From Thermoleophilia bacterium (lineage in GTDB: Bacteria; Actinomycetota; Thermoleophilia; Gaiellales; Gaiellaceae), in assembly GCA_025934335.1 (NCBI GenBank), contig JAICYG010000001.1:1-49380 (forward strand): 49,380 nt of DNA, given 5' to 3'. Within the stretch, counting starts at the first letter, position 1. The number at the start of each line of letters is the position of its first letter. The position numbers were made by a program, and so were the translations under genes. Below are positions 8,224-44,357 of this stretch, piece by piece. The notes below the pieces were generated by a model. The model saw nothing but the letters and a program-made list of their open reading frames with translations. It did not search any database and had not been told where the DNA came from.

Positions 8224-8225
8224 CG

Positions 8226-28223: not shown

Positions 28224-29108
28224 TCAGTCAAGGGCACTTTGCAGTTCGGAAGCCGTGGGCATCGCCGCGGAACAGGCGACGCGTGATGCGACGATCGCCC
28301 CCGCGATCGTGCCTCTTCGGACGGCTTCGACGAGCGATCGCCCCCTCAGGAGCGATTCGCCGAGCGCCGCCGCGAAGGCGTCCCCCGCGCCGAGCCCGTT
28401 GAGAACGGTCACAGCGCGGCCTTCGACATCGGTGCGCTGACCGTCCTCGAACACGGTCGCACCGCGCTCACCGCGCTTCAACACGAGGGTCGCCACCTCA
28501 GGAAGAGATGCCGCGGCAACCTCTTCCTCGTTGCCGATCACCACGTCCGCGGCGGCGACAGCATCACGAACAACGGCCGGGAACGCCGCCACGTCGTCCC
28601 AGAGATCAGGCCGCCAGTCGAGGTCGAAAATCGTCACCCCTCGGTGTGCGCGTAGCGCGCCGAGAGTCGTCTCGCGGCTCGGAGACTGCGCGAGCGCGGT
28701 CGCGGTGGCGTAGAGGATTCTCGCGTCGGCGACCTCCTCCTGGTCGAAGTCTTCCGTCTCGAGCCGCCAGTCAGGAGCCGTCGGCTTGCGATAGAAGGTG
28801 ATCGGAAAGCGATCAGGTGGCCAGATCTCGCAAAACGTGGGCGGTGTCTGCCAGTAGGGGTCGACGCCGAGGAACCGCACGTCCACTCCCTGCTCGGCAA
28901 GCCACCGGCGGATGAACACCCCGTGGCCGTCAGCACCGACTCGCGAGACGATGGCGGCGTCAACCCCGAGGCGCGCCAGACCGGTTGCCACATTCCCGGC
29001 GAATCCTCCGACGTAGCGTCTAAACGTCTCGACCTCCGACAACGGCGTCTCGAACTGCTCCGGGTACAGGTCGACCCCGACACGCCCGAGCACTGCTGCG
29101 TCGATCAA
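28224..29108 (-). CDS. iolC: PfkB kinase, 5-dehydro-2-deoxygluconokinase (IolC)-like
   Basis: VLGRVGVDLYP, TFRRYVGGFAGNVATG, ATALAQSPSRETTL, DLDWRPDLW, GAGDAF and the terminal AMPTASEL parallel B. subtilis IolC as I recall it. TTG 29108 sits 6 nt after GAGGAG; an alternative TTG is at 29177. Confidence 0.65.
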   Translation of the reverse strand: MIDAAVLGRVGVDLYPEQFETPLSEVETFRRYVGGFAGNVATGLARLGVDAAIVSRVGADGHGVFIRRWLAEQGVDVRFLGVDPYWQTPPTFCEIWPPDRFPITFYRKPTAPDWRLETEDFDQEEVADARILYATATALAQSPSRETTLGALRAHRGVTIFDLDWRPDLWDDVAAFPAVVRDAVAAADVVIGNEEEVAAASLPEVATLVLKRGERGATVFEDGQRTDVEGRAVTVLNGLGAGDAFAAALGESLLRGRSLVEAVRRGTIAGAIVASRVACSAAMPTASELQSALD

Positions 29109-29286
29109 AGGAAGCTCCTCTCGTCGCGTCGGGCTTCGCGACAACTCGTGCCCGCGGCCCAGGCGGCTTCGCCGCAACTGAACGCCTCGGTCTGCACACC
29201 ATGCGAACGCGCAATGATGAGAGCGCCAGGTTCTGCCTGGCTCGTCACGACGCGCGTGGCCGCCAGCGCCGCCGGCCTCAACCTCG

Positions 29287-30096
29287 TCATTGCGGAAATG
29301 CCCCCACGAAGGAGCATGCGGCGGCTCCGGCCCGTGAACCCTCCTCCATGCATTCACGGAGCGTCCGGCCTGCGAGCCGAACGGCCAAGAACGACCCGAT
29401 GAACGCGTCCCCAGCACCACAGGTATCGATGACGTCTACCGCCCGAAGTGCCGACATCTCTATGACCTCCCCCGCCTCGCTCGCCAAGCTCCCGCGCGAG
29501 CCGCGCAGCACGACCGCACAGCGGACGCCTGCCCGATGAAGCTGGCTCACCACGCGCCACGGCTCGTCTCTCGGAGAGGACACGAACGCGACGTCCAGGT
29601 CGGCAAGGGCCGTTCCCAGGCCATGGTCGGAGAAGTCGTACGAAAGGGTTGCGCCGGCGTCCGCTGCAATTCGCCAGAGCTCACTCAGGTGCCTCGGTAG
29701 CCGCGTCGCATGAATATGGCATGCGCCTACCGCAATTTCGGCTAGATCTGCAGGAGGCGAGAACGCATCGGTGATCGTGTACTCCTCGCGAACGAAGCGG
29801 CGCTCGCCGTCAGTGGCGAGAGCGATTTCCGTGACGGCCGTGGGAAGCGCGCCGTCGCGCACGACGCGGCTGATGTCGACGTTCTTCTTTCTCAACGTGG
29901 CCAGCACCCTGTCTCCCTCGACATCGCGTCCGACCGCCCCGAAATAGGCAGTCTCCACGCCTCGGGAAGCGAGGGCGACCGAAACGTTGGCGCAGCTGCC
30001 ACCTACGAGTTCACGGTCGACCGGTGGCAGATACCGATCAAGGCAGTTGTCTCCAATACAGATGACGGCCCGATGGCGACCATTCAGGGCTCGCAT
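29287..30096 (-). CDS. PfkB kinase, fructoselysine/fructosamine 6-kinase (FrlD)-like
   Basis: ICIGDNCLDRY, GGSCANVSVAL, VDISRV, YDFSD, LDVAFVS and VIDTCGAGDAFIGSFL resemble E. coli FrlD motifs as I recall them. 269 aa. Confidence 0.6.
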   Translation of the reverse strand: MRALNGRHRAVICIGDNCLDRYLPPVDRELVGGSCANVSVALASRGVETAYFGAVGRDVEGDRVLATLRKKNVDISRVVRDGALPTAVTEIALATDGERRFVREEYTITDAFSPPADLAEIAVGACHIHATRLPRHLSELWRIAADAGATLSYDFSDHGLGTALADLDVAFVSSPRDEPWRVVSQLHRAGVRCAVVLRGSRGSLASEAGEVIEMSALRAVDVIDTCGAGDAFIGSFLAVRLAGRTLRECMEEGSRAGAAACSFVGAFPQ

Positions 30097-30135
30097 TCAC
30101 ACCGCCGCGGCTCACGAGTAGGTAGAGAAGACAAC

Positions 30136-30942
30136 TCAGTCCGCGCGCGACGGTAGCGGTACAAGTTCCAGCCCCCGTCGCCGGAATATCGCAGCGCAGT
30201 CGAGACCGTGGCGCCTCAGGAACGGCACCGCGCGGAGAGCCGCTCCGGCGGTCGCCGGGACGTGCGCATCTGACCCGAGGCTCGCCCATGCCCCCTCACG
30301 GGCGATGCTCGCAATGAGCGCGGCGACGAGATCAGGGCGAACACTCATGTCGTTCCCGTTCACCTCGACGGCGACCCCGTGCCTCACCGCCGCGCGGGTG
30401 ATCTCGTCGAGCATCTTCGACAGGTTGGGCGGCTGGCCGGGAACGGAGAAGCCGAGCCGTACAGGGTGCGCAAGCACGTCATAGCGGCCGCTCGCGGCCG
30501 CGGCGACCTGGAGCTCTGCGTAGTCGCGCCATACGCCCGTCGGTTCATCCACGATGCGTGTCTCCTCGATCCCGGAATCATCGGACAGCACGTGAACTGA
30601 TCCGACGATCACGTCCCATGCCGGTGCGGACGGATCGACAACCTGTTCAAGGGCTCGCTCGTAGTCATCGTGGAGCGGACGCGCGTCAAGCTCGAGCCCC
30701 ACTCTCACCTCGATCGGGGCGACGCCTCGGGCATCGCTGATTGCGTCCAGATACGCCTGCCTTGCCAGGGGCTGGCCCTCGAGCGTCCACCGGCTCACCA
30801 GGTACGCGATCGTGTCGCGGACTTCGGACAGATGCTGCGCGTGCTCCGTGAAGGCGATGGTGTCGACGCCGTTCGCGGCGGCGGCGGCCGCCATCGTGCG
30901 CGCGTCCGACATGAGAAAGTGGTTGTGGTTGTCCGCGATCAG
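30136..30942 (-). CDS. PHP-domain phosphoesterase (HisJ/histidinol-phosphatase-like); non-canonical start inferred
   Basis: The first ATG is at 30912, but the in-frame upstream codons read LIADNHNHFL, which is the PHP D-x-H-x-H motif, followed by SD...GVDTIAFTEHA. Only CTG (30942), ATC or ACG are available before the upstream stop at 30964-66. Confidence 0.6.
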   Translation of the reverse strand: MIADNHNHFLMSDARTMAAAAAANGVDTIAFTEHAQHLSEVRDTIAYLVSRWTLEGQPLARQAYLDAISDARGVAPIEVRVGLELDARPLHDDYERALEQVVDPSAPAWDVIVGSVHVLSDDSGIEETRIVDEPTGVWRDYAELQVAAAASGRYDVLAHPVRLGFSVPGQPPNLSKMLDEITRAAVRHGVAVEVNGNDMSVRPDLVAALIASIAREGAWASLGSDAHVPATAGAALRAVPFLRRHGLDCAAIFRRRGLELVPLPSRAD

Positions 30943-32210
30943 CGTCTGATCCTCTGGGCCTCGTCATTCCGCCGGGCATGTGCTCCGTCGTTCAGCAGCA
31001 CCGCCCGCAGCGGCCTTGCTGGGTCAGCGAGATCGACCGATGACGGACATGAACCGCGCCCGATGGCGAGGACGGCAAGACGGATGTCCTTGGCAACGGA
31101 ATCGCCCTCTCCGATGGCACTCGCCGAGACGAGCCTGCCGTCGCTCGCGAGATCGAACCGGATCTCAACCCCGTCCTCTCGCACACGCAGGACTTCTCGC
31201 GCTCCCAGACTCGGAACCCCTGCGATCTGCAGCGTCAAGTCGTACTGATCCGACCAGAACCACGGAACAGCCGTGTAAGGCCGTGAGGCACCGAGAAGCG
31301 CAAGCGCGGCGGCATCGCCTTGGTCGACGGCGTTGCGCCACGACTCGAGACGCAGGCGGGCGCAATCGGCGAACGGCAAAGGAAACGAACAGCAGTCTCC
31401 TGCGGCGAAAATGGCCCCGTCGGACGTCGCGAATCGGCTGTCGACGACGATCCCCGCTTCTGTTCGAAGTCCCGCAGCGCCGGCGAGGTCCGTATTCGGT
31501 CGTGCGCCGACCGCGGCGATGACCACGTCGGCGACAAATGCGTCCGAGTCGTGTACCTCCACAGCGAAACGCCGCCCCGCGCGCCGTACGGCTGCGACCC
31601 TGGCACCACACCGGATATCCACCCGCTCGCGGCGGTGCCGTGCCGCGACGACCGAAGCTATCGACGCGGGCACCAATCGCTCGAGCACATGGAACGCCTG
31701 CTCGAGGACCGTGACGGAGCAACCGCGCAGGGCAGCGCACGCCGCGATCTCGAGGCCAAGGAATCCACCTCCGATGACCACAGCTGTCATTCCCGGCTGC
31801 AGCTGGTCCCTCAATCTGAGTACGTCTTGCCAGGTGCGAAGTCGAAGCGCATGTTCGCCGCCGGGGACGGAGAGGGACGAGGCTCTCGCGCCGGTTGCAA
31901 TCAACAGGCGGTCGTACGACATCTCTCGACGCCCTTCGAAGAGAACACGGCCGGCCCGACGGTCGATCGCCTCGATGCGGCCGTAGACGAACTCGATGCT
32001 CGCAGAGCGCAGCGACCCGAGGACGCCGCCGCCGGGCGGCCCGGCCGTGGCATCCCCAAGGGCCGCCTTTGAAAGTGGAGGGCGTTCGTACGGTGCGAAG
32101 GGATCTGAGTCCACAACGCTGATCGGCCCGTCGAAACCACAGGCGCGCAAGGCGAGAGCGGCTCGCGTTCCGCACTCTCCCCCGCCGATGACGACTATGC
32201 GACGCCCCAT
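30939..32210 (-). CDS. FAD/NAD(P)H-dependent ferredoxin reductase (pyridine nucleotide-disulfide oxidoreductase family)
   Basis: VVIGGGECGTRAA (FAD GxGxxG), YERPPLSK, VVIGGGFLGLEIAA (NAD site), and AAGDC. 423 aa from ATG 32210. Confidence 0.85.
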   Translation of the reverse strand: MGRRIVVIGGGECGTRAALALRACGFDGPISVVDSDPFAPYERPPLSKAALGDATAGPPGGGVLGSLRSASIEFVYGRIEAIDRRAGRVLFEGRREMSYDRLLIATGARASSLSVPGGEHALRLRTWQDVLRLRDQLQPGMTAVVIGGGFLGLEIAACAALRGCSVTVLEQAFHVLERLVPASIASVVAARHRRERVDIRCGARVAAVRRAGRRFAVEVHDSDAFVADVVIAAVGARPNTDLAGAAGLRTEAGIVVDSRFATSDGAIFAAGDCCSFPLPFADCARLRLESWRNAVDQGDAAALALLGASRPYTAVPWFWSDQYDLTLQIAGVPSLGAREVLRVREDGVEIRFDLASDGRLVSASAIGEGDSVAKDIRLAVLAIGRGSCPSSVDLADPARPLRAVLLNDGAHARRNDEAQRIRR

Positions 32211-32221: not shown

Positions 32222-32542
32222 TCAGTCGATGAACACGTAGACGGTGCCGTCGTCGACACGTGTGCGATACGTGCGGAGATCGATGATGGCGGGCGCGCCC
32301 TTCGCTTCTCCGGTTCGATAGTCGAAGCGTCCGTTGTGTCTTGGGCACTCGATGATCGAGCCCATCACAAGCCCGTCGCACAAGCGTGCCCTCTCATGGG
32401 TGCAGTGTCCTTCGGTTGCATAGAAGCTCCCGTCGGGCGCGCGGTAGAGCGCGTAGTCGCCGCCGGCATGATCGAAGGGAACGACATCTTCGAACTCCAC
32501 GTCGTCAACAGCGCAAACTGCGATCCAGGTCGAGGCGCTCAC
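32222..32542 (-). CDS. Rieske [2Fe-2S] ferredoxin
   Basis: 106 aa with the C-x-H ... C-x2-H pattern (GHCTHE ... IECPRHNG). GTGA overlap with the upstream gene. Confidence 0.85.
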   Translation of the reverse strand: MSASTWIAVCAVDDVEFEDVVPFDHAGGDYALYRAPDGSFYATEGHCTHERARLCDGLVMGSIIECPRHNGRFDYRTGEAKGAPAIIDLRTYRTRVDDGTVYVFID

Positions 32543-33621
32543 CCGGAAAGCGCCGACGGAATCGACGGGGGGGTTCGGTACGGATGCGCCCCAAGAGGGA
32601 GTTCACGGTGGATGTAGTACGTCTGGTCGCGCAGCTGGCGGATCACCGCGGGGACGATCTCGCGATATGCGGCAAAGAGAGACGGAGAAGCTGGAACGAG
32701 GTCGTGCTTCACCGCCGCGTGCAAAGCCGGCAGCTTGTGGTATGGCACCAGCGGGAACATGTGGTGCTCGACGTGGTAGTTCATGTTGAGGTAGAGGAAC
32801 CGGAAGATCGGGTTCATCAAGACGGTGCGCGTGTTCAGTCGGTGGTCAAGGAAGTCTTCGCCCAAACCCGAGTGCTGAGTCAGGACAAAGAGTTGGCCGA
32901 GAAACGCACCGTAGAAGCGAGGCCCGAGAACAAGTAGGAACGGGAGAGGCGATGCGAACGCGATACACGCAGCGATCATTGCGGCGTAGATCGCGAGCCA
33001 CACGCGCGCCGTCCGGAAGACCTTCCTCAGTTCGGTCGCCGGCAGGAACGACGCTTCCTCGGACGTGATACGGCCCGTGGCGTGGTAGAGGACGCGGGCG
33101 AGCATCATCGGGACGTAGACCAGCCCGAAGAAGTTCGCGATGATGCGCACCAGCCGCGCCGGCCTCATTACATCGATCTCAGGGTCGCGACCGACGACCA
33201 GCGTGTCGGTGTGGTGGCGCGCGTGACTCCACCGCCAGACCGTCGGCTCGAGCATGTTCATGAAGGAGCCGAGTTGATACCCGAAGGCGTTCAACCAGCG
33301 CGTGCGGAACGCGGTGCCATGTCCGTACTCATGCCAGCGTGCATCCGCACCCGATCCGTACAGAAGACCGTAAACGGCGAAGCAAGGAATCGCCCGCCAT
33401 GTCCCGTAAGACAACACGCCGAGCGCGCCGGAACCGGTGAGCCCACCCAGCCACAGGACAAGGTCGATCAACGCTCGACGATCGGAACGCCCCATGAGCT
33501 CCCGAAGGCGTGGACGGGGAATCGCACTACGAAACCAATCCGCGCCGGCAAGACCACCCTCGACGGCCCTCTCGCCTCGTTTGCCGTCGAGGCGGTACTC
33601 GTCGAGATGCTCTCTACCCAT
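32539..33621 (-). CDS. membrane fatty-acid-desaturase-superfamily di-iron enzyme (three His boxes)
   Basis: HEYGH, HARHH and YHVEHHMFPLVPYHKLP His boxes with flanking TM segments. ATG 33621 overlaps the upstream stop by 8 nt; an alternative ATG is at 33639. Confidence 0.8.
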   Translation of the reverse strand: MGREHLDEYRLDGKRGERAVEGGLAGADWFRSAIPRPRLRELMGRSDRRALIDLVLWLGGLTGSGALGVLSYGTWRAIPCFAVYGLLYGSGADARWHEYGHGTAFRTRWLNAFGYQLGSFMNMLEPTVWRWSHARHHTDTLVVGRDPEIDVMRPARLVRIIANFFGLVYVPMMLARVLYHATGRITSEEASFLPATELRKVFRTARVWLAIYAAMIAACIAFASPLPFLLVLGPRFYGAFLGQLFVLTQHSGLGEDFLDHRLNTRTVLMNPIFRFLYLNMNYHVEHHMFPLVPYHKLPALHAAVKHDLVPASPSLFAAYREIVPAVIRQLRDQTYYIHRELPLGAHPYRTPPSIPSALSG

Positions 33622-34729
33622 CAGGCCCCCCGGCGGCAAGGGCTCCTACGGTGGGCTCCGATGCCGCACGCTCCGCGAGCTCCTTCAAGAGGCGGATGTC
33701 CTCCAGGCCCTCCCTCGCATTCGTCCGCGGCGGTTCACCCGTGACGACACAGCTGTGGAACTCCTCGAGCTCTCGTCGAAACGCCTCGTCGTACGACACC
33801 GTAAAGGTCTGTTCCCAGGAGACGGTCCCGTCGCCGGCCTGCAGAACGAGACCAGTTGGAGCATTTCGAAGGAACGGTGACGGAAACCGCAACGCGAGTC
33901 GGGAGGAGGCCGTGATGACCTCGAAGTGCTGCTCGTAGCGGACAAGATCGGCGGTCGCCGTCCATGTGCTGACGGCGTCGGCATCTGTCGGGAGCCCGAA
34001 AACCCCCACGACGCCGAGACCGTCGGCGCGGATCGCAGCGTGTTTGACGCTCGGGCGGCCGCACAAGCCGGCGAGCAGATTGACATCGTGAATCATGGAG
34101 TCGATGAGTGCCGTCCGATAGAACCGTCGGATTGCCTCGTCGGCGGACGGCAGAGCCTCGGCGACGAGCTTGTCGTCGTCGGCACGCAACTCCGCCAGGA
34201 CTGCGGGGTCGACGTCGGTGGCCGGGAGCACATGATGGTGGGCGAGATACGGATCCTGCGGACTCTCGAACGTCGCCGTGCGCGCGAGGAGCGGTTCTCC
34301 GAGACCTTGAAGCTCCGCGAGCGCGCGCTCGTACGCCGGGTCGTATCGCTTGTGGTAGCCCACCATCAATGTCACACCGGCACGTTCAGCGGCTGCGATC
34401 ATCTCCTCGCCTTCGCGTGGCGTAACGCACATTGGCTTCTCGACAAACACACCAATGCCAGCCTCGGCCGCAGCACACGCCACCGGAGCATGCGATCCAG
34501 ACGACAGGACGAGAAGCGCATCGAGCGGCTCGGCGAACATGTCGTCGGGATGAGTGTGGACTCGTGGGACCTCGTAGGCCTCACCGAGGCGCCGGACGAG
34601 TTCCTCTGACAAGTCACAGAGCGCCACGATTTCGAACCGGTCGTTCATCTGGCGTAGATGCGGAAGATGCATGACCTGCGCGATCACACCGCAACCGAGG
34701 ACGCCGACGCGCAGCCGCCTACCTTTCAT
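33614..34729 (-). CDS. Gfo/Idh/MocA-family oxidoreductase
   Basis: LRVGVLGCGVIAQVMHLPHL and VFVEKPM motifs. 371 aa from ATG 34729, which overlaps the upstream gene by 11 nt. Confidence 0.85.
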   Translation of the reverse strand: MKGRRLRVGVLGCGVIAQVMHLPHLRQMNDRFEIVALCDLSEELVRRLGEAYEVPRVHTHPDDMFAEPLDALLVLSSGSHAPVACAAAEAGIGVFVEKPMCVTPREGEEMIAAAERAGVTLMVGYHKRYDPAYERALAELQGLGEPLLARTATFESPQDPYLAHHHVLPATDVDPAVLAELRADDDKLVAEALPSADEAIRRFYRTALIDSMIHDVNLLAGLCGRPSVKHAAIRADGLGVVGVFGLPTDADAVSTWTATADLVRYEQHFEVITASSRLALRFPSPFLRNAPTGLVLQAGDGTVSWEQTFTVSYDEAFRRELEEFHSCVVTGEPPRTNAREGLEDIRLLKELAERAASEPTVGALAAGGPDG

Positions 34730-35717
34730 GTCGTGCCTTCTGACCGTGCGACGTCGCAGTTCGCAGAAGCGCGACAGCACGCTCGATGGAACCGAACGGG
34801 TCTGCGGCCGCGTCTTCCCACTCGATCGAAAGAGGTCCGTCGTACCCGACTTCCGCGAGCGCAACGGAGAATGCCGCCCACCACGCGACGTCGTGTCCGT
34901 CGCCGGCAGTGGCGTACCGGTACGACCGGTCGGCCGGCGTCGAGACCCCCTCCTGATCTCCCTCGAGCAAGCCGTTGGTCGCCGTCGCCTCCTCGTCGAG
35001 CACAACGTCTTTGGCATGGGCGTAGCGCACGAGCGGCCCGAGTGCGCGGATCGCACGCAACGGGTCCATCTGCTGCCAGAAAAGGTGCGACGGGTCGAGA
35101 TTGACGCCTAGCTGGCCGGCGGCGTCTCCAAAGGCGTTGCGTAGGCGGAGAAACCCACGCGGCGTGAACACGGTTTGACCGGGATCGAGCTCAAGGCAAA
35201 TCGCGACGCCTGGTGCACGTTCCGACGCAAACTCGAGCAGCCCTTCCCAGTAGGGAACCAATCGTTCACGCCACTGCCATGCGACGCGACCGTGATCCTG
35301 CGGGAGCCACTCCACGGGAAGGAACGCTGGTCGGACTCGATCGTCAGGACCTGCGACCGCGCACCCGGACATGCAGACGACTCGCTCGACACCGAGGGCG
35401 TCAGCGGCGACGAGCGTCCGCCTAAGGGTTCGATCGTCGGCACTGCCACCGTCGATGACATCCGGGAAGAGCTGGTTCCCCGAGCAGTTGAGCGCCGCCA
35501 GCTCCACTCCAGCGTTCCGCGCGTCCCGCAAGAGGGATTCGACGCCGCGATCGTTTCCGAGCTCGTCGAGGTCGAGGTGAGGAGCTGACGAGAAGCCACC
35601 CGTACCGAGCTCGACCTGGCCGATTCCATGCTCGGCGGCCCACGCGAACGCCGCGGGACGTGGAAGCTGACGAAGCCCGTCGGTGAAGAGCCCTATCGGC
35701 TGCGGCACCATGCCCAT
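34719..35717 (-). CDS. xylose-isomerase-like TIM-barrel protein (sugar phosphate isomerase/epimerase, IolE/LgdB-type)
   Basis: GIGQVELG, ICLELDP, NLDPSHLFWQQMDP, YAHAKD and GYDGPLSIEWED follow the typical AP-endonuclease-2/XI TIM pattern. TGATG junction with the LmbE gene. Confidence 0.8.
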   Translation of the reverse strand: MGMVPQPIGLFTDGLRQLPRPAAFAWAAEHGIGQVELGTGGFSSAPHLDLDELGNDRGVESLLRDARNAGVELAALNCSGNQLFPDVIDGGSADDRTLRRTLVAADALGVERVVCMSGCAVAGPDDRVRPAFLPVEWLPQDHGRVAWQWRERLVPYWEGLLEFASERAPGVAICLELDPGQTVFTPRGFLRLRNAFGDAAGQLGVNLDPSHLFWQQMDPLRAIRALGPLVRYAHAKDVVLDEEATATNGLLEGDQEGVSTPADRSYRYATAGDGHDVAWWAAFSVALAEVGYDGPLSIEWEDAAADPFGSIERAVALLRTATSHGQKARHER

Positions 35718-38135: not shown

Positions 38136-38157
38136 TCTGCCGTCTCCTTTCTGTCGC

Positions 38158-38180
38158 GCGGCCGGGCTGTTCCCGGCCGC
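38158..38180 (-). other. intercistronic stem-loop upstream of the SBP gene
   Basis: gcggccggg-ctgtt-cccggccgc forms a 9-bp perfect stem in the 65-nt gap between the permease stop (38201) and the SBP start (38135). Confidence 0.45.
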
Positions 38181-38200
38181 ATTTCTCCGCTCGCGAGCGC

Positions 38201-39208
38201 TCATAAGGGCGCCTCGCGAATGCGGGGGTCGAGAAGGCCGTGGACGATGTCCACGATGGAGTTTGCGAGTACGGCGACGATCGCGGCAAAGGCGATGACG
38301 CCTGCGGTGAGTGGGTAGTCAAGGCTGCGGATTGCCTGGAGGCCTACGTAGCCGAGACCTGGGAGACCGAAGACCTTCTCCACGAAGAACGTGCCTGCGA
38401 GGGCGACCCCGACGTCGGCGCCGAGCAGTGTCACGATCACGGGTGCCGTGTTCGGCTGGACATGCCGCAGCAGCACGCGCCGTGTTGACGCTCCCTTCGC
38501 TCGAGCTGTTCGCACGTACCCCTGCGCAAGCTGCTCGAGCGTGAGCGAACGGAAGTAGCGCGCGTAGATTCCGCCGGTTCCCAGCGCGAACACGAGCCAC
38601 GGAAGCAGTAGGTGGTGGGCCCATGCCAGCGGGTGCTCGCGCAGGTTGACGTATCCATCGATGGGGAAGATGTGAAACGCCGAGCCGAGCGGCACCCCGA
38701 GGAACGTGCCCTGCGTTGGCTCGTAGGCAAAGAAATAGGACGCCATCGGCGCCAGCCAGAAGACCGGTATCGAGACGCCGAGCAGTGCGATGACGATGCT
38801 GAGTCGATCCGGAAGCGACCGCGGACGCAGCGCGCCGATCGTCCCGACGGCGAATCCGATCAGCAGCCAGAGGACGGCACCGCCGATGACGACGGAGGCG
38901 GTAGTCCCCGCGGCCGGCAGCACAATGTCTGTGACAGGACGCCGCTGCAGGTACGAGTACCCGAAGTCGAGGTGAAGAACGCCCCAGAGGAAACGCGCGT
39001 ACTGAACGTAGTACGGGCGGTCGGTGCCGAGCTCGTGCGCGACCCGCGCCACCTCCTCCGGAGAGGCGGCCTTACCTGCAATGCGAGTCGCGGGATTCGC
39101 GCCGGTCTTGGCGGCGAGCAGGTAGAAGAGCGCCCACGTCAGGAACGTGATCAGAACGAACTGCAGAGCCATCGCCGCTAACCGCCGAAGCAGGAATGCG
39201 CCGGTCAT
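38201..39208 (-). CDS. ABC transporter permease (DppB/OppB-like)
   Basis: N-terminus FLLRRLAAMALQFVLITFLTWALFYL and six TM segments. ATGA overlap with the upstream permease. Confidence 0.85.
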   Translation of the reverse strand: MTGAFLLRRLAAMALQFVLITFLTWALFYLLAAKTGANPATRIAGKAASPEEVARVAHELGTDRPYYVQYARFLWGVLHLDFGYSYLQRRPVTDIVLPAAGTTASVVIGGAVLWLLIGFAVGTIGALRPRSLPDRLSIVIALLGVSIPVFWLAPMASYFFAYEPTQGTFLGVPLGSAFHIFPIDGYVNLREHPLAWAHHLLLPWLVFALGTGGIYARYFRSLTLEQLAQGYVRTARAKGASTRRVLLRHVQPNTAPVIVTLLGADVGVALAGTFFVEKVFGLPGLGYVGLQAIRSLDYPLTAGVIAFAAIVAVLANSIVDIVHGLLDPRIREAPL

Positions 39209-40197
39209 GTAGCGTCTCCGTACAGCGCCTCACGAACACCGTCGCCGAACACGTTGAACGCGAGCATCGTCAGGACCAGCGCGAAACCAGGCACGATCGC
39301 GAGGAAAGGCGCCGTGAAAAAGAGCCCCGAGTCAATGGAGTCGCTGAGCATCTGACCCCAGCTAGCTGTCGGCGGAGGAACGCCGACGCCGAGGTAACTG
39401 AGCCCGGCTTCGAACATGATGTTCCCGGCGATCACTGTCGTCGCGTACACCACGAGCGGGGCAGTCACCTGTGGCAGCACGTGGCGGCGCAGTATGCGCG
39501 CGTCGGTCGCACCAATCGACCGTGCCGCCTCCACCAGCGTCGACGAGCGGATCCGCAGCACCTCGCCGCGCACGATCCGTGCCGGGTAGTACCAGGTGAA
39601 CAGCGCGATGATGACAAGAACGTTCACGAGCCCGGGGCCGAGCACCACCGCGACCCCAATCGCGAGGAGGAGCGCCGGAAACGCCATCCCCGCCTCGACG
39701 GCGCGCGAGATGACGGCATCCGTCAAGCCGCCGAACCATCCCGCGGCAAGACCGAAGATCACTCCGGCGAGGAGCGAGATGCCGGTCGCACCAACGGCGA
39801 CGATAAGCGACACACGCGCGCCGTAGAGCAAACGGACCAGCATGTCGCGACCGATCGTGTCGGCACCGAGAACGAAGACATCTCCGTGCGGATTTGGGGT
39901 CACTGAGTCCGCCTTGAAGGCGCGGCCGAGTGGACCGATCGGCACGCCGTCCGCGCCAACCGCCGCGTCGATCTGCTCGTTCGGCCCATGGCCGGTCCAG
40001 TGCGCGGCTATCGGTGCGCCGGCACCGGCCGCGAGTACCAGAGCGACGAGGAACCCAAGCGCAGCCATGCTCACGCGATCCGAGCGGAGGCGCCGCCAGA
40101 AGAGTGTCCACGGACTCTTCGCGTGTCCAGCCGCCTCGGCGGCACCGGACTCAGGCCGAGCAACGTCGTCCGGGTGCGCTGCGCCCGGAGCCGTCAC
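39205..40197 (-). CDS. ABC transporter permease (DppC/OppC-like); start uncertain
   Basis: SPWTLFWRRLRSDRVSMAALGFLVAL is an OppC_N-type N-terminus, followed by the permease core. GTG 40197 is the first start after the upstream stop (40287). The ORF-track start at 40368 would overlap the upstream gene by 82 nt. Confidence 0.75.
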   Translation of the reverse strand: MTAPGAAHPDDVARPESGAAEAAGHAKSPWTLFWRRLRSDRVSMAALGFLVALVLAAGAGAPIAAHWTGHGPNEQIDAAVGADGVPIGPLGRAFKADSVTPNPHGDVFVLGADTIGRDMLVRLLYGARVSLIVAVGATGISLLAGVIFGLAAGWFGGLTDAVISRAVEAGMAFPALLLAIGVAVVLGPGLVNVLVIIALFTWYYPARIVRGEVLRIRSSTLVEAARSIGATDARILRRHVLPQVTAPLVVYATTVIAGNIMFEAGLSYLGVGVPPPTASWGQMLSDSIDSGLFFTAPFLAIVPGFALVLTMLAFNVFGDGVREALYGDAT

Positions 40198-40286: not shown

Positions 40287-42053
40287 CTACGAGCCCTGCG
40301 CCCAGGGGTTCGGCTCCACCTCGTAGAGGTTTCCCTGCCCGTGCTGGAGGGTGTAGAAGACGTGCCACCCTCCGTGGAATGGATGAGGCGACTTGGCGCC
40401 GAGCAGGCCATCCGGACTTGGATCGCCGTCGGAGACAGTGATGCCCGTCAGCTCGTTCTCATCGTCTGAAAGGCCATACTTTCCGAGGGTCTGGCTGAGC
40501 GCCGCGATCGGGTCGCGACCCGCCGCCAACAGCCGAAGAGGCTTGTTGCCGGTGACGCCGTAGTCCGCGTTCGCGTCGAACATCCACATCGAGTCGAAGT
40601 GACCCGTCTGGGTATGCAGGGTATTGCCGGCGTCTTCTTCGAAGACAACGTGATCCTTGTCCCACCAGGCGACATTGTCGAAGCCCGAGTGATTCTGGTC
40701 GCCAAGGAAGACGAGGTTAAAGCTCCCGGTACCGGCCGCGGAGTCGGTCATCACGAACCGGAAGATGCTGCCGTAGCCGCCGTTGGCGTTCTCCTCGCTG
40801 CGACGGTCGGTATCTCCCGTGTCCGAGAACCAGATCTCCTGGAAGTGCGTACCGGGTCGGTAGACGGCGTTCTCGGGCCGGCGGAACGGCGTCGCGAACG
40901 CGTTGTAGCACGCGGTATTCGCGTCGTACGGGGCCGGCATCCCGCCTGCAGGAACGACCTGGCAGGTGACCCAGCGCGCTGCGAACGTCCGCCCGTAGCT
41001 GTGCAGTGAACGCAGCCCGGCGTCGGTGATGACTGGGTCGTTGTTGGCTCCATTGGACCGGGTGGCGCCGCGCGGAGCAATAGGAGTTCCGTCATCCGCC
41101 AGGACTTGAAGTGCCTCGAGGCGGCCTCCCCCGGCAAGGAAGCTCCGATCATTGGGTACCCACCGGTAGACGTAGTCCATCGGTGCCTTCGCGTTTGGAT
41201 TCGCGACTCCCTTTCCACCACCGTCGTCCTCGGCGATGATCATGCTCCCGTCGGGGGCGATTTGCATCCCCTCGTACGAGGAGGCGCCGAAGTACGCACC
41301 CTCGTTGCGAGGATCGCTGCCGTCGGCGTTGAATGACCACACTCCCCCATTGGGCGACCGCTCTTCGGGCGAGGCCAGGAGCTTCTTACGGAACGGGTCC
41401 CACGTAATCCCGTCGAAGCCGGGCAACGCGTTGCCGTCGGCGTCACGATCGGCGACGATCGTCACGCGATGGGCGAAGTCAGCGTCGAGGTTGACGCGCA
41501 TGATGGTCCCCCGAATGCCCGCCGACGCTGGATTGCCGTTGCCGCCGAACCCAATCGACGGCCATTCATGAGCCACGAAGAGGAAGTGGGTCCCGTAGTC
41601 GTAGGCGGCGTCGGCACCGTGCTGACCGCTGAGCACGAGATAGACCATCTTGTCGGGCGACGTGTGAGTGGCGAACGGGCCCAGTTGGTAGCCACTCGTG
41701 GAGTCGCCGGTAATGGTCGTTGGAACCTGCGTCCCGTCGTCGAGGAACGAAAAGAGCTTGATCGCAGGCTTCGATCCAATTGCAGGCGACGGATTCTCGA
41801 CCGGCTGATCGCCGGCGACGATCAAGGCATCACGTAGCTCCCGTGTCCAGGCGTTGGGTTGGGTATCACCGCCCGCCGCTGAGATGTTCGGGAAGACGCC
41901 GGTCGTTGCCTTCGGTCGCGCATTCGGAACTCCCGCGTACGGGTAGCTCGCCCACGACGACCCGCGATGCGTATGGCCCGCTGCTCCGGCCAGGGGAACG
42001 ATCGCGCCAACTCCAACGGCGAGCGCAACACTCAATGATCTCCGGAATCCCAC
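40287..42053 (-). CDS. secreted beta-propeller protein, PhoX/DUF839-like putative phosphoesterase
   Basis: GTG 42053 follows GGGAGGAGG. The signal contains RR (GFRRSLSVALAVGVGAIVPLAGAAG). SYEGMQIAPDGSMIIAEDDGG, GFDNVAWWDKDHVVFEEDAGN and NELTGITVSDG...FYTLQHGQG resemble PhoX C-terminal motifs. The family call is tentative. Confidence 0.5.
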   Translation of the reverse strand: MGFRRSLSVALAVGVGAIVPLAGAAGHTHRGSSWASYPYAGVPNARPKATTGVFPNISAAGGDTQPNAWTRELRDALIVAGDQPVENPSPAIGSKPAIKLFSFLDDGTQVPTTITGDSTSGYQLGPFATHTSPDKMVYLVLSGQHGADAAYDYGTHFLFVAHEWPSIGFGGNGNPASAGIRGTIMRVNLDADFAHRVTIVADRDADGNALPGFDGITWDPFRKKLLASPEERSPNGGVWSFNADGSDPRNEGAYFGASSYEGMQIAPDGSMIIAEDDGGGKGVANPNAKAPMDYVYRWVPNDRSFLAGGGRLEALQVLADDGTPIAPRGATRSNGANNDPVITDAGLRSLHSYGRTFAARWVTCQVVPAGGMPAPYDANTACYNAFATPFRRPENAVYRPGTHFQEIWFSDTGDTDRRSEENANGGYGSIFRFVMTDSAAGTGSFNLVFLGDQNHSGFDNVAWWDKDHVVFEEDAGNTLHTQTGHFDSMWMFDANADYGVTGNKPLRLLAAGRDPIAALSQTLGKYGLSDDENELTGITVSDGDPSPDGLLGAKSPHPFHGGWHVFYTLQHGQGNLYEVEPNPWAQGS

Positions 42054-42138
42054 ACCCGACCTCCTCCCTTGGACGGCGAAAACCGGGCGATCGTACGCGC
42101 TTCTCGAGAACTTTTCAATACCTGTTTAAATAATCTTG
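42054..42138. promoter_or_regulatory. divergent control region (PhoX-like operon versus SIS-ROK genes)
   Basis: 85-nt spacer containing the only AT-rich stretch nearby (cttttcaatacctgtttaaataatctt) and a perfect 10-bp palindrome TTCTCGAGAA at 42101-42110. Confidence 0.45.
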
Positions 42139-43191
42139 ATGCCAGAAGAGAGCCTCCTCCGGCAGGAGATCCGGGAACAACCGCATTCCCTGATGCGCCT
42201 GCTCGCGGCGACCACCGCGTTTTCGGATGCGAGGGAGCTCTTGCGGGCACACAACACGCGCGCAATCCGTCTCGTCGGCCATGGATCGTCGGACAACGCG
42301 GCCTGCTACGGCGTCTACGCGTTTGCGCTCCTCGGCGGCCTCCCCGCGGTGCGCGATTCGATCTCGCTCCCGGTCTACTACAGGAGTGAGAGCAGACTCG
42401 AGCACTCAGCCGTTGTCGCGCTGTCGCAGTCCGGACGGACGCCCGACGTCGTCGCCTACGTCGAACGCGCGCGGGCCCAGCGTGCACCAACCATCGCGCT
42501 CACGAACGATCCGTCGTCGCCGCTAGCCGAGGTCGCGGACGTGACCGTGCCACTTCTCGCAGGCCATGAGCGTGCGATCGCAGCGACAAAGACCTACACA
42601 TCAGAACTCGCCGCTCTCGCGATACTCGCCGCCCACCTGGGCGGCCGAGCGTCGGAGGTCACCGACGCGATCAGTCGCCTCGTCGAGACAATGGCCGCAC
42701 ACCTCCGAGACGCCGAAATCCCACGGCTCGAGAAGCTCGCGAGCGTTCTTGCCCATGCCGGTCGGATGTTCGTGGTCGGGCGCGGCCTCGAATACGCCAC
42801 CGCGCGCGAACTGGCGCTCAAACTCACCGAGACATGCCGTGTTGCAACGACCGCACTGACATCGACTGACCTGGCCCACGGCCCGATTGCGGCGGTCGAC
42901 TCTCAGTTCCCTGTCCTCGCAATCGCCTCGCTCGATGACGCGCTCCCAGCGGTTCTCTCGGCACTCGATCGCGCGCGCCGGGCCGGGGCGACGATTGTCT
43001 TGTTCGGCAACGCCGCAGGGCTCGTCGAGGGCGTGGCGGGAACCGCTCCAGTACCCTCCGTGCCTCTTCCTGTGCTGTCTCCGATCATGTCGATTGTCCC
43101 GGGCCAACTCTTCGCCGACTCACTCGCTCGAGCGAGAGGCCTGAACCCCGACCAGCCTTTCGGACTGACGAAGGTTACGCTCGCACCGTAG
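42139..43191 (+). CDS. double-SIS-domain sugar-phosphate isomerase/deaminase/deglycase (GlmS isomerase-domain, FrlB/AgaS-like)
   Basis: GHGSSDNAACYG, ALSQSGRTPDVV, VVGRGLEYATARELALKLTE and the C-terminal GLTKVTLAP (compare KSVTVE in GlmS). No glutaminase domain. Confidence 0.75.
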   Translation: MPEESLLRQEIREQPHSLMRLLAATTAFSDARELLRAHNTRAIRLVGHGSSDNAACYGVYAFALLGGLPAVRDSISLPVYYRSESRLEHSAVVALSQSGRTPDVVAYVERARAQRAPTIALTNDPSSPLAEVADVTVPLLAGHERAIAATKTYTSELAALAILAAHLGGRASEVTDAISRLVETMAAHLRDAEIPRLEKLASVLAHAGRMFVVGRGLEYATARELALKLTETCRVATTALTSTDLAHGPIAAVDSQFPVLAIASLDDALPAVLSALDRARRAGATIVLFGNAAGLVEGVAGTAPVPSVPLPVLSPIMSIVPGQLFADSLARARGLNPDQPFGLTKVTLAP

Positions 43192-43193
43192 AG

Positions 43194-44357
43194 ATGGCCC
43201 GCCAGCAAGCATCCCTCAACGAGAGCAACAGCGCGGAACGTGCCATCGCTGCCCGCAGCAGAACGCGCGTCGCAACGCTTGTGTTCGACGAACTACGACT
43301 TCGGGGACCGCTGACGCGGGCACAACTTCAGATGGCACTTCGTGCCAGTCCAGTCACAATCACGGCGGCCGTACGCGAACTGACCGCCCGACAACTCGTG
43401 ATCGAACGCGGCGAGGGGATCTCCACCGGGGGAAGGCGCGCCCACCTCCTTGACCTGGGCCCGCGCGTCGGTGGCGTACTTGCGGTCGATATCGGCTCCA
43501 TCCGCCTGAGGGTCGCCGCGGCGGACATGCGGGGGCGAATCGTGGCTCGTCGCACCGTAGACAGCCCAGCACGGCCCGACCGCAGACGGCTACGCAAGCT
43601 GTTTGGGGAGGTTGCGAACGAACTGGGCGGACCGGTCCGAGCCGTCGGCGTCGGTCTCGCCGCGGCGGTCTACCCTGACGGGTCGATTCAGGTCGCGCCA
43701 ACAATGCCCGAATGGGATGGCTACGACTTCAACCGATTGTTCACTGACTTCGACGCACCTGTCCTGATCGAAAACGAGTCGAATCTTGCCGGGCTCGGCG
43801 AGCACAGGAAGGGTGGGCATCCCGATTCAGACCCGGTCCTGTTCGTCGCGATCGGTGCAGGCATCGGCGGTTCCCTGATTCTCGGGGGTGACATCTACAC
43901 GGGCGCCACCGGTCGCGCCGGTGAGTTGGGAGACCTGCGCACCGGTCTGGTACGAGGGCTTGAGCTCGAGAGCAAGGCGGGCGTACACGCAATCGTCAAG
44001 CGTTACCGAGAACTCGGTGGGCGCGGCAGCGCAGACGCAGAGATCGTCTTTCAGCTGGCCGCACAAGGAGACACTGCCGCCGGTGCGGCCGTCCAGCAGG
44101 CCATCGAGGAGATCGCGCTCGCACTCGTGAACGCAACGTCGCTCATTGATCCTGCCCGCATCGTCATCGGCGGCGGACTCGCTGCGGCAGGCGACTTCCT
44201 ACTCGAGCCGGTCCGAGCATTGATGGAACCCCACCTCCTGAAAGTCCCCGAAATCGTCGCCAGCCGACTCGGCGCAGACGCGACCTTGCATGGGGGAATC
44301 GAATGGGCGCTCGACAGAGGAAGCGAGGAGCTTCTAGATCAGGTGAACAGTGGGTGA
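43194..44357 (+). CDS. ROK-family transcriptional regulator (NagC/XylR-like)
   Basis: N-terminal wHTH (LRGPLTRAQLQMALRASPVTITAAVRELTARQLV), then a ROK body (LAVDIGSIRLR, AIGAGIGGSLILGGDIYTGATGRAGELG). I do not see the usual CxCGxxGC zinc motif. Confidence 0.8.
   Translation: MARQQASLNESNSAERAIAARSRTRVATLVFDELRLRGPLTRAQLQMALRASPVTITAAVRELTARQLVIERGEGISTGGRRAHLLDLGPRVGGVLAVDIGSIRLRVAAADMRGRIVARRTVDSPARPDRRRLRKLFGEVANELGGPVRAVGVGLAAAVYPDGSIQVAPTMPEWDGYDFNRLFTDFDAPVLIENESNLAGLGEHRKGGHPDSDPVLFVAIGAGIGGSLILGGDIYTGATGRAGELGDLRTGLVRGLELESKAGVHAIVKRYRELGGRGSADAEIVFQLAAQGDTAAGAAVQQAIEEIALALVNATSLIDPARIVIGGGLAAAGDFLLEPVRALMEPHLLKVPEIVASRLGADATLHGGIEWALDRGSEELLDQVNSG

Follow-up and report, generated by a model that had tools for sequence, protein, structure and literature searches.

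A predicted catabolic island combining an LmbE-type deacetylase, an Opp-type importer and a MocDEF-type oxygenase in a Thermoleophilia bacterium

Layout of the island and its promoter

In the window (the whole 49,380-nucleotide stretch of DNA analysed here), thirteen co-directional ORFs run on the minus strand from 42053 down to 28224, opposite a divergent plus-strand pair encoding a SIS protein and a ROK regulator, a layout already described in the earlier note. The unit boundary drawn there left out a convergent EEP gene that is part of the conserved unit, and with this gene the island extends over about 17 kb (27.44-44.36 kb). Its features are:

43194..44357, plus strand: ROK-family regulator with an N-terminal HTH, NagC/Mlc-like; core gene
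42136..43191, plus strand: double-SIS protein of the GlmS-isomerase/NagB-II (GlcN-6-P deaminase) type; specific to the window's lineage
42090..42118, minus strand: predicted sigma-70-type promoter, TTGAAA-17-TACGAT, inside a conserved block of about 45 nt
40287..42053, minus strand: secreted beta-propeller protein, distant PhoX relative; first gene of the operon
39205..40197, minus strand: ABC permease, OppC/DppC type (BPD_transp_1 and OppC_N)
38201..39208, minus strand: ABC permease, OppB/DppB type (BPD_transp_1, 130.8 bits, and BPD_transp_1_N)
36495..38204, minus strand: family-5 (Opp/Dpp-type) solute-binding protein, start at ATG 38135 or ATG 38204
35717..36409, minus strand: LmbE/PIG-L Zn-dependent N-deacetylase, GTG start, GAGGAG Shine-Dalgarno; core gene
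34719..35717, minus strand: xylose-isomerase-like TIM-barrel enzyme (AP_endonuc_2, 79.8 bits); core gene
33614..34729, minus strand: Gfo/Idh/MocA NAD(P) dehydrogenase (GFO_IDH_MocA, 77.1 bits); core gene
32539..33621, minus strand: MocD-like membrane di-iron oxygenase with three His boxes
32222..32542, minus strand: MocE-family Rieske [2Fe-2S] ferredoxin
30939..32210, minus strand: MocF-like FAD ferredoxin-NAD(P) reductase (Pyr_redox_2, 207 bits, and Reductase_C)
30136..30942, minus strand: PHP-domain, HisJ-type phosphomonoesterase; core gene
29287..30096, minus strand: PfkB kinase 1 (Pfam PfkB, 120 bits)
29109..29286, no strand: 178-nt spacer separating the two kinase genes
28224..29108, minus strand: PfkB kinase 2, IolC-like (5-dehydro-2-deoxygluconokinase-like), TTG start, GAGGAG Shine-Dalgarno
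27444..28151, plus strand: EEP (endonuclease/exonuclease/phosphatase) phosphoesterase, 235 aa, convergent with the operon; conserved core

Most gene junctions had been thought to overlap; with curated starts about half do (6/12, or 7/12 if the binding protein starts at 38204), the remaining gaps measuring 11-178 nt. Translational coupling extends from LmbE through MocE, and from MocF to PHP. The OppC/DppC-type permease has a probable start at GTG 40197. For the PHP gene the most probable start codon is CTG 30942, which overlaps the MocF stop (cTGA) and brings back the D-x-H-x-H metal motif of the protein; the N-terminal IADNHNHFL motif is kept in the relatives L002, L092 and L094. A promoter scan across the 17 kb returned TTGAAA-17-TACGAT as the sole minus-strand match, and the window, L002, L092 and L094 all carry AGGTATTGAAAAGTT and TACGATCG unchanged despite a different downstream gene. 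The operon is predicted from sequence to be driven from this single conserved promoter (42118-42090), and the block of about 45 nt is probably also the operator region.

The island encodes no ABC ATPase. With an importer, a regulator and enzymes but neither a glycosyltransferase nor an aminotransferase nor a synthase, the operon appears to be of the catabolic type, in support of the earlier reading; the cluster holds no glycoside hydrolase either. GC3 drops to 0.70-0.82 in the island against 0.90-0.96 in its flanks, a contrast that speaks for horizontal acquisition in a high-GC actinomycete; the contigs of the relatives have about 65-67% GC.

Conservation among relatives

The full gene set was found in one narrow lineage only, and L002, L003, L004 and L104 are its MocDEF-type relatives. 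A nine-gene core (ROK, two Opp-type permeases, family-5 binding protein, LmbE, TIM barrel, Gfo/Idh/MocA, EEP, oxygenase, PHP) retains its order in L092-L095, more distant soil-metagenome contigs, at 53-82% amino acid identity. Co-conservation of the gene set is hence a property of the core, kept across diverged lineages, but not of the whole set of thirteen plus two genes. Since gene order is conserved in independent contigs, the locus is not a chance juxtaposition, an outcome that the earlier note had named as fatal to its claim. Its statement that no characterised pathway is known to have this gene set also stands, no characterised cluster of like composition having been found in the searchable literature or in annotated plasmid records.

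In L092/L094, identity to the window's proteins reaches 80% for the OppB/DppB-type permease, 77-82% for the binding protein (43-48% in LacI-type relatives), 74% for the OppC/DppC-type permease, 67-70% for the Gfo/Idh/MocA protein, 62-63% for ROK, divergent from the importer there too, and 57-58% for the TIM-barrel enzyme. The EEP protein shares 81-92% identity with its orthologues in L002/L003 and 58-59% with those in L092/L094; in the latter two contigs its gene is found within the operon, flanked by Gfo and P450. Five orthologues show no variation at the catalytic residues N, E, H, D-x-N and S-D-H. The importer and LmbE form the most deeply conserved pair: L105 carries a minimal LacI-importer-LmbE module, and in a more distant LacI-type relative the importer is coupled with TIM and Gfo enzymes.

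In the P450-type contigs, a cytochrome P450 occupies the position of MocDEF. These relatives lack the PhoX-like protein, the SIS protein and both PfkB kinases, which are, as judged from this distribution, additions of the window's lineage. The PhoX-like gene heads the operon in that lineage only and is absent from L092/L094, as is the SIS gene, which has an internal deletion in L002. Kinase 1 reaches 90% identity in L003, is cut short in L002 and is represented in L094 only by a 43% fragment upstream of ROK. Kinase 2, 97% identical in L003/L004, has been deleted in L002 and has no counterpart in L092/L094. The spacer between the kinase genes is missing in L003/L004, where the two genes abut (blastn synteny break). 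L002 lacks MocF, reduced there to a 37-aa deletion remnant, an intact SIS and kinase 2, suggesting either that these parts are dispensable or that the L002 copy is decaying.

The MocDEF-type oxygenase

The three-His-box enzyme and the Rieske protein and reductase that the earlier note called dedicated to it are no orphans: they are homologues of MocD, MocE and MocF, the known oxygenase of rhizobial rhizopine catabolism. The oxygenase scores 121.6 bits on FA_desaturase, carries His boxes HEYGH, HARHH and HVEHH together with hydrophobic segments, and, across 93% of its length, shares 54-55% identity with rhizobial mocD-annotated proteins whose genes adjoin mocE and mocF. The ferredoxin (Pfam Rieske 66.3 bits, CxH...CxxH motif) exceeds the cutoff of the MocE model TIGR02377 (139.7 vs 136.15). 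Among the 80 GTDB species whose MocD homologues are closest, MocE adjoins MocD in 76/80 loci and a reductase 44-54% identical to the MocF-like protein adjoins MocD/E in 56/80; LmbE, PHP, PhoX-like, EEP or ROK genes occur within 10 kb in 0/80. The mocDEF genes have a genetic role in the catabolism of 3-O-methyl-scyllo-inosamine (rhizopine) (PMC10107442, PMC6668481, PMC5789663).

Enzyme families and the candidate substrate

Each family call of the earlier note found support in an HMM match, the PhoX-like call being weak by sequence. None of the models IolG, IolC, FrlD, FrlB, MshB, BshB1 and NagB-II (equivalog-type) or HisJ (subfamily) reaches its cutoff. The PhoX-like protein matches Pfam PhoX at 26.6 bits (cutoff 24) over residues 291-454 only; the best PDB fold match of its AF2 model (pLDDT 86.5) is Pseudomonas fluorescens PhoX (3zwu; E 3.7e-14), with a moderate TM of 0.47-0.49. 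Only 52 homologues were found, the more distant ones in unrelated contexts. The regulator scores 121 bits on Pfam ROK and aligns with the NagC model over residues 30-349. EEP (PF03372, 59.8 bits) has no signal peptide, and the PHP protein matches Pfam PHP (43.4 bits), PDB 2yxo (E 7e-5) and the NCBIfam histidinol-phosphatase subfamily model (67.9 bits, under cutoff).

The island most likely serves to take up and degrade an N-acetylated compound of the sugar or cyclitol type. Salvage of a GlcNAc/GlcN-cyclitol conjugate would be the best fit. LmbE (PIG-L 67.9 bits, AHPDD and HVDH motifs) has GlcNAc-X deacetylases as nearest characterised relatives, its PDB matches including TT1542, diacetylchitobiose deacetylase and BshB1, and the SIS protein is nearest to the GlcN-6-P deaminase NagB-II. 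The TIM-barrel enzyme has a 40%-identical homologue within a Tsukamurella iolG/iolC (inositol) region, and kinase 2 (Pfam PfkB 144 bits) scores 290.1 on the IolC model TIGR04382 (cutoff 300). Against this proposal, IolD, IolB, IolJ and IolA are absent from the island in a Pfam/HMM survey of its proteins, as are ABC ATPases.

Amadori catabolism had been proposed from an FrlD-like kinase and an FrlB-like SIS protein. Kinase 1 does have fructoselysine 6-kinase FrlD as its best family match (NF007321, 120.7, well under the cutoff of 247). The SIS protein (two Pfam SIS domains, 95.4 bits) is, however, far closer to the NagB-II/GlmS type (NF046059, 197 vs cutoff 430, E 4e-58; PDB 8eol, 5e-45) than to FrlB (E 4e-6), and the Amadori proposal is therefore weakened. 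Oxidative 3-keto cleavage of a glycoside would be compatible with weak PDB similarities of the Gfo/Idh/MocA protein to DgpA1 (its best match, E 3e-19, Rossmann domain only) and of the TIM-barrel enzyme to 2-hydroxy-3-keto-glucal hydratase (8ro4; about 1e-10, a level also reached by 2zds); both proteins resemble characterised enzymes at the family level only. Finally, the binding protein (SBP_bac_5 224 bits; signal peptide containing RR) has peptide binders as its nearest solved relatives (PDB 8upi, 1.9e-55; OppA2, 4e-43), which makes a glyco-amino-acid or a peptide-like compound a possible ligand.

Our overall explanation, a horizontally acquired catabolic island working by the steps below, has in our estimate about even odds (0.5). 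Its favoured candidate substrate is a methylated and/or phosphorylated polyol or cyclitol conjugated to a GlcNAc-type sugar. For such a conjugate, the putative PhoX-like phosphoesterase would trim an extracellular N-acetyl-hexosaminyl compound outside the cell, and the family-5 protein would bind the trimmed product for import. LmbE would then strip the N-acetyl group, and the Gfo dehydrogenase and TIM enzyme would catalyse an oxidation followed by isomerisation or elimination, either of the inosose type or as a 3-keto cleavage that breaks the glycosidic bond without hydrolysis. MocDEF (or the P450) may take off an O- or N-methyl group via hydroxylation; the demethylating role of MocD is deduced from rhizobial genetics, and to our knowledge MocD has never been characterised biochemically. 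EEP and PHP would take off phosphodiester and phosphomonoester groups, and the kinases and SIS deaminase would convert the amino-sugar half to fructose-6-phosphate and channel a cyclitol-derived keto-deoxy acid into central metabolism.

Layout and borders of the island

ORF calling returned 13 minus-strand genes between 28224 and 42053 of the window, facing two on the plus strand, bearing out the 13-gene run facing a SIS-ROK pair that an earlier note had described from the sequence alone. The features are as follows.

27444-28151, convergent with the operon, EEP phosphoesterase gene
28224-42053, minus strand, 13 ORFs: PhoX-like, PermC, PermB, SBP5, LmbE, TIM, Gfo, MocD, MocE, MocF, PHP, kinase 1 and kinase 2
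29109-29286, 178-nt spacer between both PfkB kinase genes
30940-30942, CTG, most likely the PHP start codon
42118-42090, minus strand, predicted sigma-70-type promoter
42136-44357, plus strand, two ORFs: SIS and ROK

Every family named in the earlier note was matched when the island proteins were searched against Pfam: PhoX (weakly), BPD_transp_1 twice (PermC and PermB, of OppC and OppB type), SBP_bac_5 (SBP5), PIG-L (LmbE), an AP_endonuc_2 TIM barrel (TIM), GFO_IDH_MocA (Gfo), FA_desaturase, Rieske and Pyr_redox_2 with Reductase_C (MocD, MocE and MocF), PHP, PfkB twice, double-SIS and ROK. Family-diagnostic motifs were found in the island proteins, and no ABC ATPase gene was present in the island. 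The EEP gene, missed at first reading, scored 59.8 bits against its Pfam model; its catalytic residues are invariant across orthologues, and the gene is conserved along with the cluster. The claim that most genes are joined by overlapping stop and start codons stood in part: with curated starts, 6 of the 12 junctions overlap (PermC/PermB, LmbE/TIM, TIM/Gfo, Gfo/MocD, MocD/MocE and MocF/PHP; 7 of 12 if SBP5 starts at 38204), but gaps of 11-178 nt separate the others. The PHP gene most likely starts with the CTG that overlaps the MocF stop (cTGA). Only from this codon is the IADNHNHFL metal-binding motif of the PHP N-terminus encoded, a motif also present in the orthologues, and the orthologue in L002, a related contig, starts with TTG at the equivalent position; when ORFs were called from ATG, GTG and TTG only, the D-x-H-x-H metal motif was lost. 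The spacer between the kinase genes is missing from two 91%-identical relatives (L003 and L004), in which the genes abut, and may be an insertion or an internal promoter.

GC content is 70-75% in most 2-kb bins of the window, and GC3 is 0.70-0.82 in island genes versus 0.90-0.96 in flank genes. The left border falls in the stretch from 27378, where a host proline-iminopeptidase gene ends, to the EEP start, and the right border in the stretch from the ROK stop (44357) to 44395. The window holds no tRNA gene, and neither an integrase gene nor a flanking repeat was noted on reading both borders. Related contigs have about 65-67% GC throughout. This composition marks the island as foreign and fits transfer from a lower-GC actinomycete. 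The island landed within a sugar-catabolic neighbourhood. Upstream of the island, the host flank (13115-15228 and 21317-25695) carries genes for two Gfo/Idh/MocA oxidoreductases, for a Peripla_BP_4 sugar ABC system that includes an ATPase, and for an FGGY kinase. A protein of 1,332 aa encoded at 16060-20058, also in the host flank, combines FG-GAP and ASPIC/UnbV repeats with a faint RnfD-like membrane segment at its N-terminal end.

A conserved core with lineage-specific accessories

Three Logan assemblies (L003, L004 and L005) are 91% identical to the window at the nucleotide level and share its host flank. L002 (JGI 3300082208), 82% identical, keeps the entire gene order from ROK to EEP; it carries deletions inside SIS (about 695 nt), in MocF (leaving a 37-aa remnant), at the 3' end of kinase 1 and across all of kinase 2 (982-1335, 11258-11371 and 12194-12991). 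A contig from farmland soil (ENA; L104) carries SBP-LmbE-TIM-Gfo-MocD-MocE-MocF at 77-93% amino acid identity. Two further pairs of contigs, L092/L093 and L094/L095, were reached via a search with LmbE and are laid out as a divergent ROK gene followed by PermC-PermB-SBP5-LmbE-TIM-Gfo-EEP-P450-PHP.

Identity to the window of proteins from the P450-type relatives (L092-L095)
Protein, identity
ROK, 62-63%
PermC, 74%
PermB, 80%
SBP5, 77-82%
LmbE, 60-63%
TIM, 57-58%
Gfo, 67-70%
EEP, 58-59%
PHP, 53-54%

The PhoX-like, SIS and full-length PfkB kinase genes are absent from the L092-L095 contigs; L094 has a 43%-identical PfkB fragment upstream of ROK, and OppD/F-type ATPases a few kb off. A minimal relative consists of LacI-PermC-PermB-SBP5-LmbE, with LmbE about 50% and SBP 48% identical; of all pairings, that of importer with LmbE is conserved most deeply. 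In a distant relative (L103-type), the SBP is 43-44% identical to that of the window. L103 (Ga0335076_10000042, 6507-20489) is LacI-regulated and reads TIM-SBP5-OppD-OppF-PermC-PermB-peptidase S9-Gfo-TIM-Gfo, with a beta-eliminating lyase nearby and an alpha/beta hydrolase in place of the window-type LmbE.

The divergent intergenic region contains a conserved block, of which AGGTATTGAAAAGTT and TACGATCG are identical in the window, L002, L092 and L094. Inside this block lies the predicted promoter, TTGAAA-17-TACGAT, the only minus-strand match of the promoter scan across the 17 kb; no exact inverted repeat with arms of at least 7 nt was found in the block. The first gene behind the promoter is PhoX-like in the window and L002 and PermC in L092 and L094, suggesting that the PhoX-like gene was either inserted behind an ancestral promoter or lost in the relatives.

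GTDB was scanned with MocD, one genome per species, and the best 80 loci were tested by tblastn with all 16 island proteins. The best MocD identity was at most 61%. MocE co-occurred with MocD in 76 of these 80 loci and MocF in 56, while LmbE, PHP, PhoX-like, EEP and ROK were found in none. The idea that the whole gene set is widespread was rejected, since only MocE and MocF co-occur with MocD in the 80 loci. Co-conservation holds for the core, whose order is kept in diverged relatives, but not for the full set, recovered in 0 of 80 GTDB loci.

Taken together, these comparisons show that the operon-like catabolic island is real, with a conserved nine-gene core, and that the PhoX-like, SIS and PfkB genes are lineage-specific accessories. 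In L002, the core genes are intact and accessory genes are decaying or dispensable. Of the explanations weighed here, the one to which we give least credence is that no single pathway exists, and that chance or accretion assembled a mosaic of modules (PhoX phosphate scavenging, a peptide importer, MocDEF and kinases). Such a mosaic would agree with the lineage-specificity of the PhoX-like, SIS and kinase genes, some of them deleted in L002, with the occurrence of MocDEF, in many genomes, as a LacI-linked module of its own, and with the failure to recover the full set among the GTDB genomes. However, the order of the nine core genes is kept over a range of 53-82% amino acid identity under one conserved promoter, stop/start overlaps run from LmbE to MocE and join MocF to PHP, and the oxygenase is swapped in place, not lost.

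The PhoX-like protein was rejected as a core component because its 40-47%-identical homologues sit in unrelated contexts. Only 52 homologues are detectable. Its match to Pfam PF05787 is weak (26.6 bits versus a cutoff of 24) and covers residues 291-454 only. The structural model has PhoX (3zwu, 4a9v) as its top Foldseek match with an E value of 3.7e-14, at a TM-score of just 0.47-0.49 and 12-13% identity, and a PDB sequence search with a profile of 39 homologues returned no match. In a Planctomycetota MAG (GCA_016709875.1, 8505-11662), a 42%-identical homologue is divergent from and adjoins an FA_desaturase-family gene, possibly by coincidence.

The oxygenase slot

As read from its sequence, the island oxygenase is of the MocDEF type, which the earlier note had overlooked. 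MocD scores 121.6 bits against PF00487, has all three His boxes (HEYGH, HARHH and HVEHH) and shares 54-55% identity, across 93% of its length, with proteins from rhizobial plasmids that are annotated as MocD and followed by mocE and mocF. The MocE gene lies directly 3' of MocD with a 4-nt overlap, and its Rieske protein passes TIGR02377 'MocE family 2Fe-2S ferredoxin' (139.7 versus a cutoff of 136.15). MocF, with its Pyr_redox_2 and Reductase_C domains, is 44-54% identical to reductases adjoining MocDE elsewhere. The MocD family counts more than 7,600 homologues at E<=1e-30, and such 'fatty acid desaturase family' proteins are very abundant in soil- and plant-associated bacteria. To our knowledge, the sole functional assignment of MocD-like proteins is genetic, from rhizopine catabolism. 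The units for catabolism of rhizopine (scyllo-inosamine and 3-O-methyl-scyllo-inosamine) are mocDEF, mocR, mocBA and mocC (PMC10107442, PMC6668481), and mocDEF-like triads are also known outside rhizopine loci (PMC5132102, PMC5789663).

The closest known system is the rhizopine locus mocCABRDEF of Sinorhizobium meliloti L5-30 and Rhizobium leguminosarum, as outlined in PMC10107442 and PMC6668481 (Bahar et al. 1998 as cited there). Both it and the island have genes for a MocD membrane His-box protein, a MocE Rieske protein and a MocF reductase, arranged in one shared order, and both encode a dehydrogenase of the Gfo/Idh/MocA type (MocA family) as well as a xylose-isomerase-like TIM protein (MocC family). 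What the rhizopine locus degrades is a methylated, polar cyclitol amine. By contrast, the island has neither a Peripla_BP protein (MocB) nor a GntR/aminotransferase-type MocR, but an Opp-type importer (SBP_bac_5) and ROK instead; it adds LmbE, EEP, PHP, PhoX-like, SIS and two PfkB proteins, its host is an actinomycete, and a P450 replaces the oxygenase in relatives. Since MocD, MocE and MocF are found and MocB and MocR are not, the island shares oxygenase type and enzyme families with a rhizopine locus without being one.

MocD-MocE-MocF triads with 52-66% identity also occur in widespread LacI-linked modules (R. etli CIAT 652 pA, Streptomyces sp. MZ04, Amycolatopsis endophytica and the P. syringae mocDEF-xylA2 module; PMC5132102), often beside TIM, Gfo and sugar ABC transporters as in the island. 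Unlike the island, these modules are under LacI regulation, have Peripla_BP_4 transporters and lack LmbE, PHP, EEP and PhoX-like genes. Among rhizobia, the 'mocD' genes closest to that of the window are those of R. etli CIAT 652 pA and R. pisi DSM 30132, which share the layout LacI - TIM epimerase / MocD-MocE-MocF - PanB-like, beside cob and nad genes. These two are not mocCABR rhizopine loci. The majority of rhizobial 'MocDEF' sets probably act on a substrate other than rhizopine.

A CYP107/109/130-like P450 sits in the MocDEF position in L092/L093 and L094/L095. These loci show a non-orthologous displacement at the monooxygenase slot, P450 versus MocDEF. This swap inside an otherwise orthologous operon would define the step as monooxygenation of a soluble substrate, and would give two enzyme systems comparable on one substrate. 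Marine porphyran utilisation loci offer a precedent for an O-methyl-removing monooxygenase in a carbohydrate operon, a P450 that oxidatively demethylates 6-O-methyl-galactose. It parallels the P450 of L092 and L094, but belongs to another P450 family and host, and these loci have no LmbE, EEP or PHP.

Candidate ligands and pathways

From the deep conservation of importer with LmbE, and from the GlcNAc-X deacetylases closest to LmbE, we infer that the ligand is N-acetylated and taken up by the Opp-type importer. Conservation of EEP and PHP, to which this lineage adds a PhoX-type exo-enzyme, argues that the ligand bears one or more phosphate esters. It would receive one monooxygenation, most economically read, from the role that genetics gives MocDEF, as an O- or N-demethylation. 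In the absence of a glycosidase, Gfo and TIM would perform inosose-type chemistry or cleave the glycosidic bond by a 3-keto route, and SIS and the kinases may convert glucosamine to fructose-6-phosphate and pass a keto-deoxy acid to central metabolism. A bolder, tentative reading (probability about 0.3) is that the core encodes an undescribed pathway for N-acetylated, methylated, phosphate-bearing conjugates of an amino sugar with a cyclitol or polyol, in which the glycosidic bond would be cut non-hydrolytically and a MocD-type membrane di-iron enzyme would demethylate a carbohydrate or cyclitol. Its substrates could be head groups of the GlcNAc-inositol type, units of the teichoic-acid type or modified aminocyclitols. 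The reading of the whole as an undescribed system is supported in part: the core is real, conserved and uncharacterised, but one central module belongs to a type already known, and some of the parts named in the earlier note are accessory. The literature searched yielded no characterised cluster of this composition, and nothing relevant on demethylation of pinitol or O-methyl-inositol by MocD-like enzymes or on GlcN-Ins catabolism. A biosynthetic cluster was rejected, as there is no glycosyltransferase, aminotransferase, synthase or exporter, and importer and repressor are found. If true, the bolder reading would open the very large MocD family to biochemistry for the first time. A core with LmbE and an Opp-type importer but no glycosidase may point to an unexplored way in which soil actinomycetes use amino-sugar conjugates; should the substrate prove ordinary, the island would extend the list of known catabolic operons only modestly.

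The iol, Frl and 3-keto cleavage systems each have two or three families in common with the island, and each falls short at the equivalog level. Non-hydrolytic 3-keto glycoside cleavage is carried out by DgpA/DgpBC, by the Agrobacterium 3-keto-glucoside lyase and hydratase, and by systems of the Bacteroides BT2156-2160 type. Like the island, these pair a Gfo/Idh/MocA protein with a xylose-isomerase-like TIM and use no glycoside hydrolase, but the similarities are weak and partial, and no reductase partner was identified in the island. Gfo and TIM match only the family-level Pfam models. The best PDB match of Gfo, DgpA1, is weak and confined to the Rossmann domain (E 3e-19), that of TIM to 8ro4, a 2-hydroxy-3-keto-glucal hydratase, is weak and spans half of the barrel (E 4.5e-10), and the BT_2158 family model scored 23.5 versus a cutoff of 750.

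The earlier note had also proposed salvage of GlcNAc- or GlcN-inositol, which precedes mycothiol or arises from its breakdown, or of head groups of the GPI/GIPC type. LmbE would take the role of MshB or PIG-L, and IolG-, IolE- and IolC-like enzymes would degrade the inositol. We regard this specific route as doubtful. MshB and PIG-L do belong to the LmbE family, and LmbE scores 67.9 against PF02585 (cutoff 28.2), with the motifs AHPDD (residue 13) and HVDH (residue 109); the characterised enzymes nearest to it (TT1542, diacetylchitobiose deacetylase and BshB1) deacetylate GlcNAc-X compounds. It remains, however, below the equivalog cutoffs for BshB1 (84.5 versus 182.5) and MshB (23.4 versus 224, the N-terminal 60 residues only). 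The myo-inositol pathway (IolG, IolE, IolD, IolB, IolC, IolJ and IolA) shares with the island a Gfo/Idh/MocA protein, a TIM barrel and an IolC-like kinase: kinase 2 falls just short of the IolC model TIGR04382 (290.1, cutoff 300), and a 40%-identical TIM homologue sits inside the iolG/iolC region of Tsukamurella. Yet Gfo matches the IolG model TIGR04380 in its N-terminal Rossmann domain only (93.1 versus 355), the IolD, IolB, IolJ and IolA families occur in no island protein, and the IolC-like kinase is absent in L002 and the P450-type core. Three phosphoesterases would suit inositol-phosphate head groups, and an inositol derivative is the one substrate of MocDEF known from genetics (PMC10107442), but plain GlcNAc-inositol offers no obvious task for the conserved oxygenase slot, P450 or MocDEF.

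A further candidate substrate is an N-acetylated, O-methylated rhizopine-type aminocyclitol, or an aminoglycoside or aminocyclitol antibiotic modified by N-acetylation, phosphorylation and N- or O-methylation. LmbE would then free the amine, MocDEF or P450 would demethylate, and oxidation and deamination of the ring would fall to MocA- and MocC-like enzymes. In aminoglycoside pathways, enzymes of the LmbE type remove the acetyl group from GlcNAc-cyclitol pseudodisaccharides, and a deacetylase with phosphoesterases could undo common resistance modifications. MocDEF with the Gfo/Idh/MocA and TIM families parallels mocA, mocC and mocDEF (PMC10107442). On the other hand, the island has no MocB- or MocR-type protein and, except for SIS, no aminotransferase or deaminase for a ring amine; Gfo and TIM are tied to MocA and MocC at the family level only, and the best-matching rhizobial 'mocD' genes themselves lie outside rhizopine loci. 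We consider such a substrate unlikely.

Very unlikely, in our view, is catabolism of an Amadori compound or glycosylamine (an opine-like sugar-amino-acid conjugate), also proposed in the earlier note. It would combine the Opp-type importer with an FrlD-like kinase, an FrlB-like SIS deglycase, an FrlC-like TIM epimerase and a Gfo-type oxidoreductase, a scheme that resembles the conversion of mannopine to santhopine. SBP5 resembles peptide and opine binders including AgaA, the distant relative has a peptidase S9 and a beta-eliminating lyase, and the best NCBIfam match of kinase 1 is fructoselysine 6-kinase (FrlD, NF007321), albeit at 120.7 versus a cutoff of 247. Against this, SIS and the kinases lie outside the conserved core, and LmbE, EEP, PHP and the oxygenase are left unexplained. 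The call of SIS as FrlB-like was overturned: it matches FrlB only at E 4e-6 (NF008481, 26.3 versus a cutoff of 430) and is far nearer to the GlmS-isomerase/NagB-II type (E 4e-58; 197 bits for NagB-II, 185 bits for GlmS; PDB 8eol, 5e-45).
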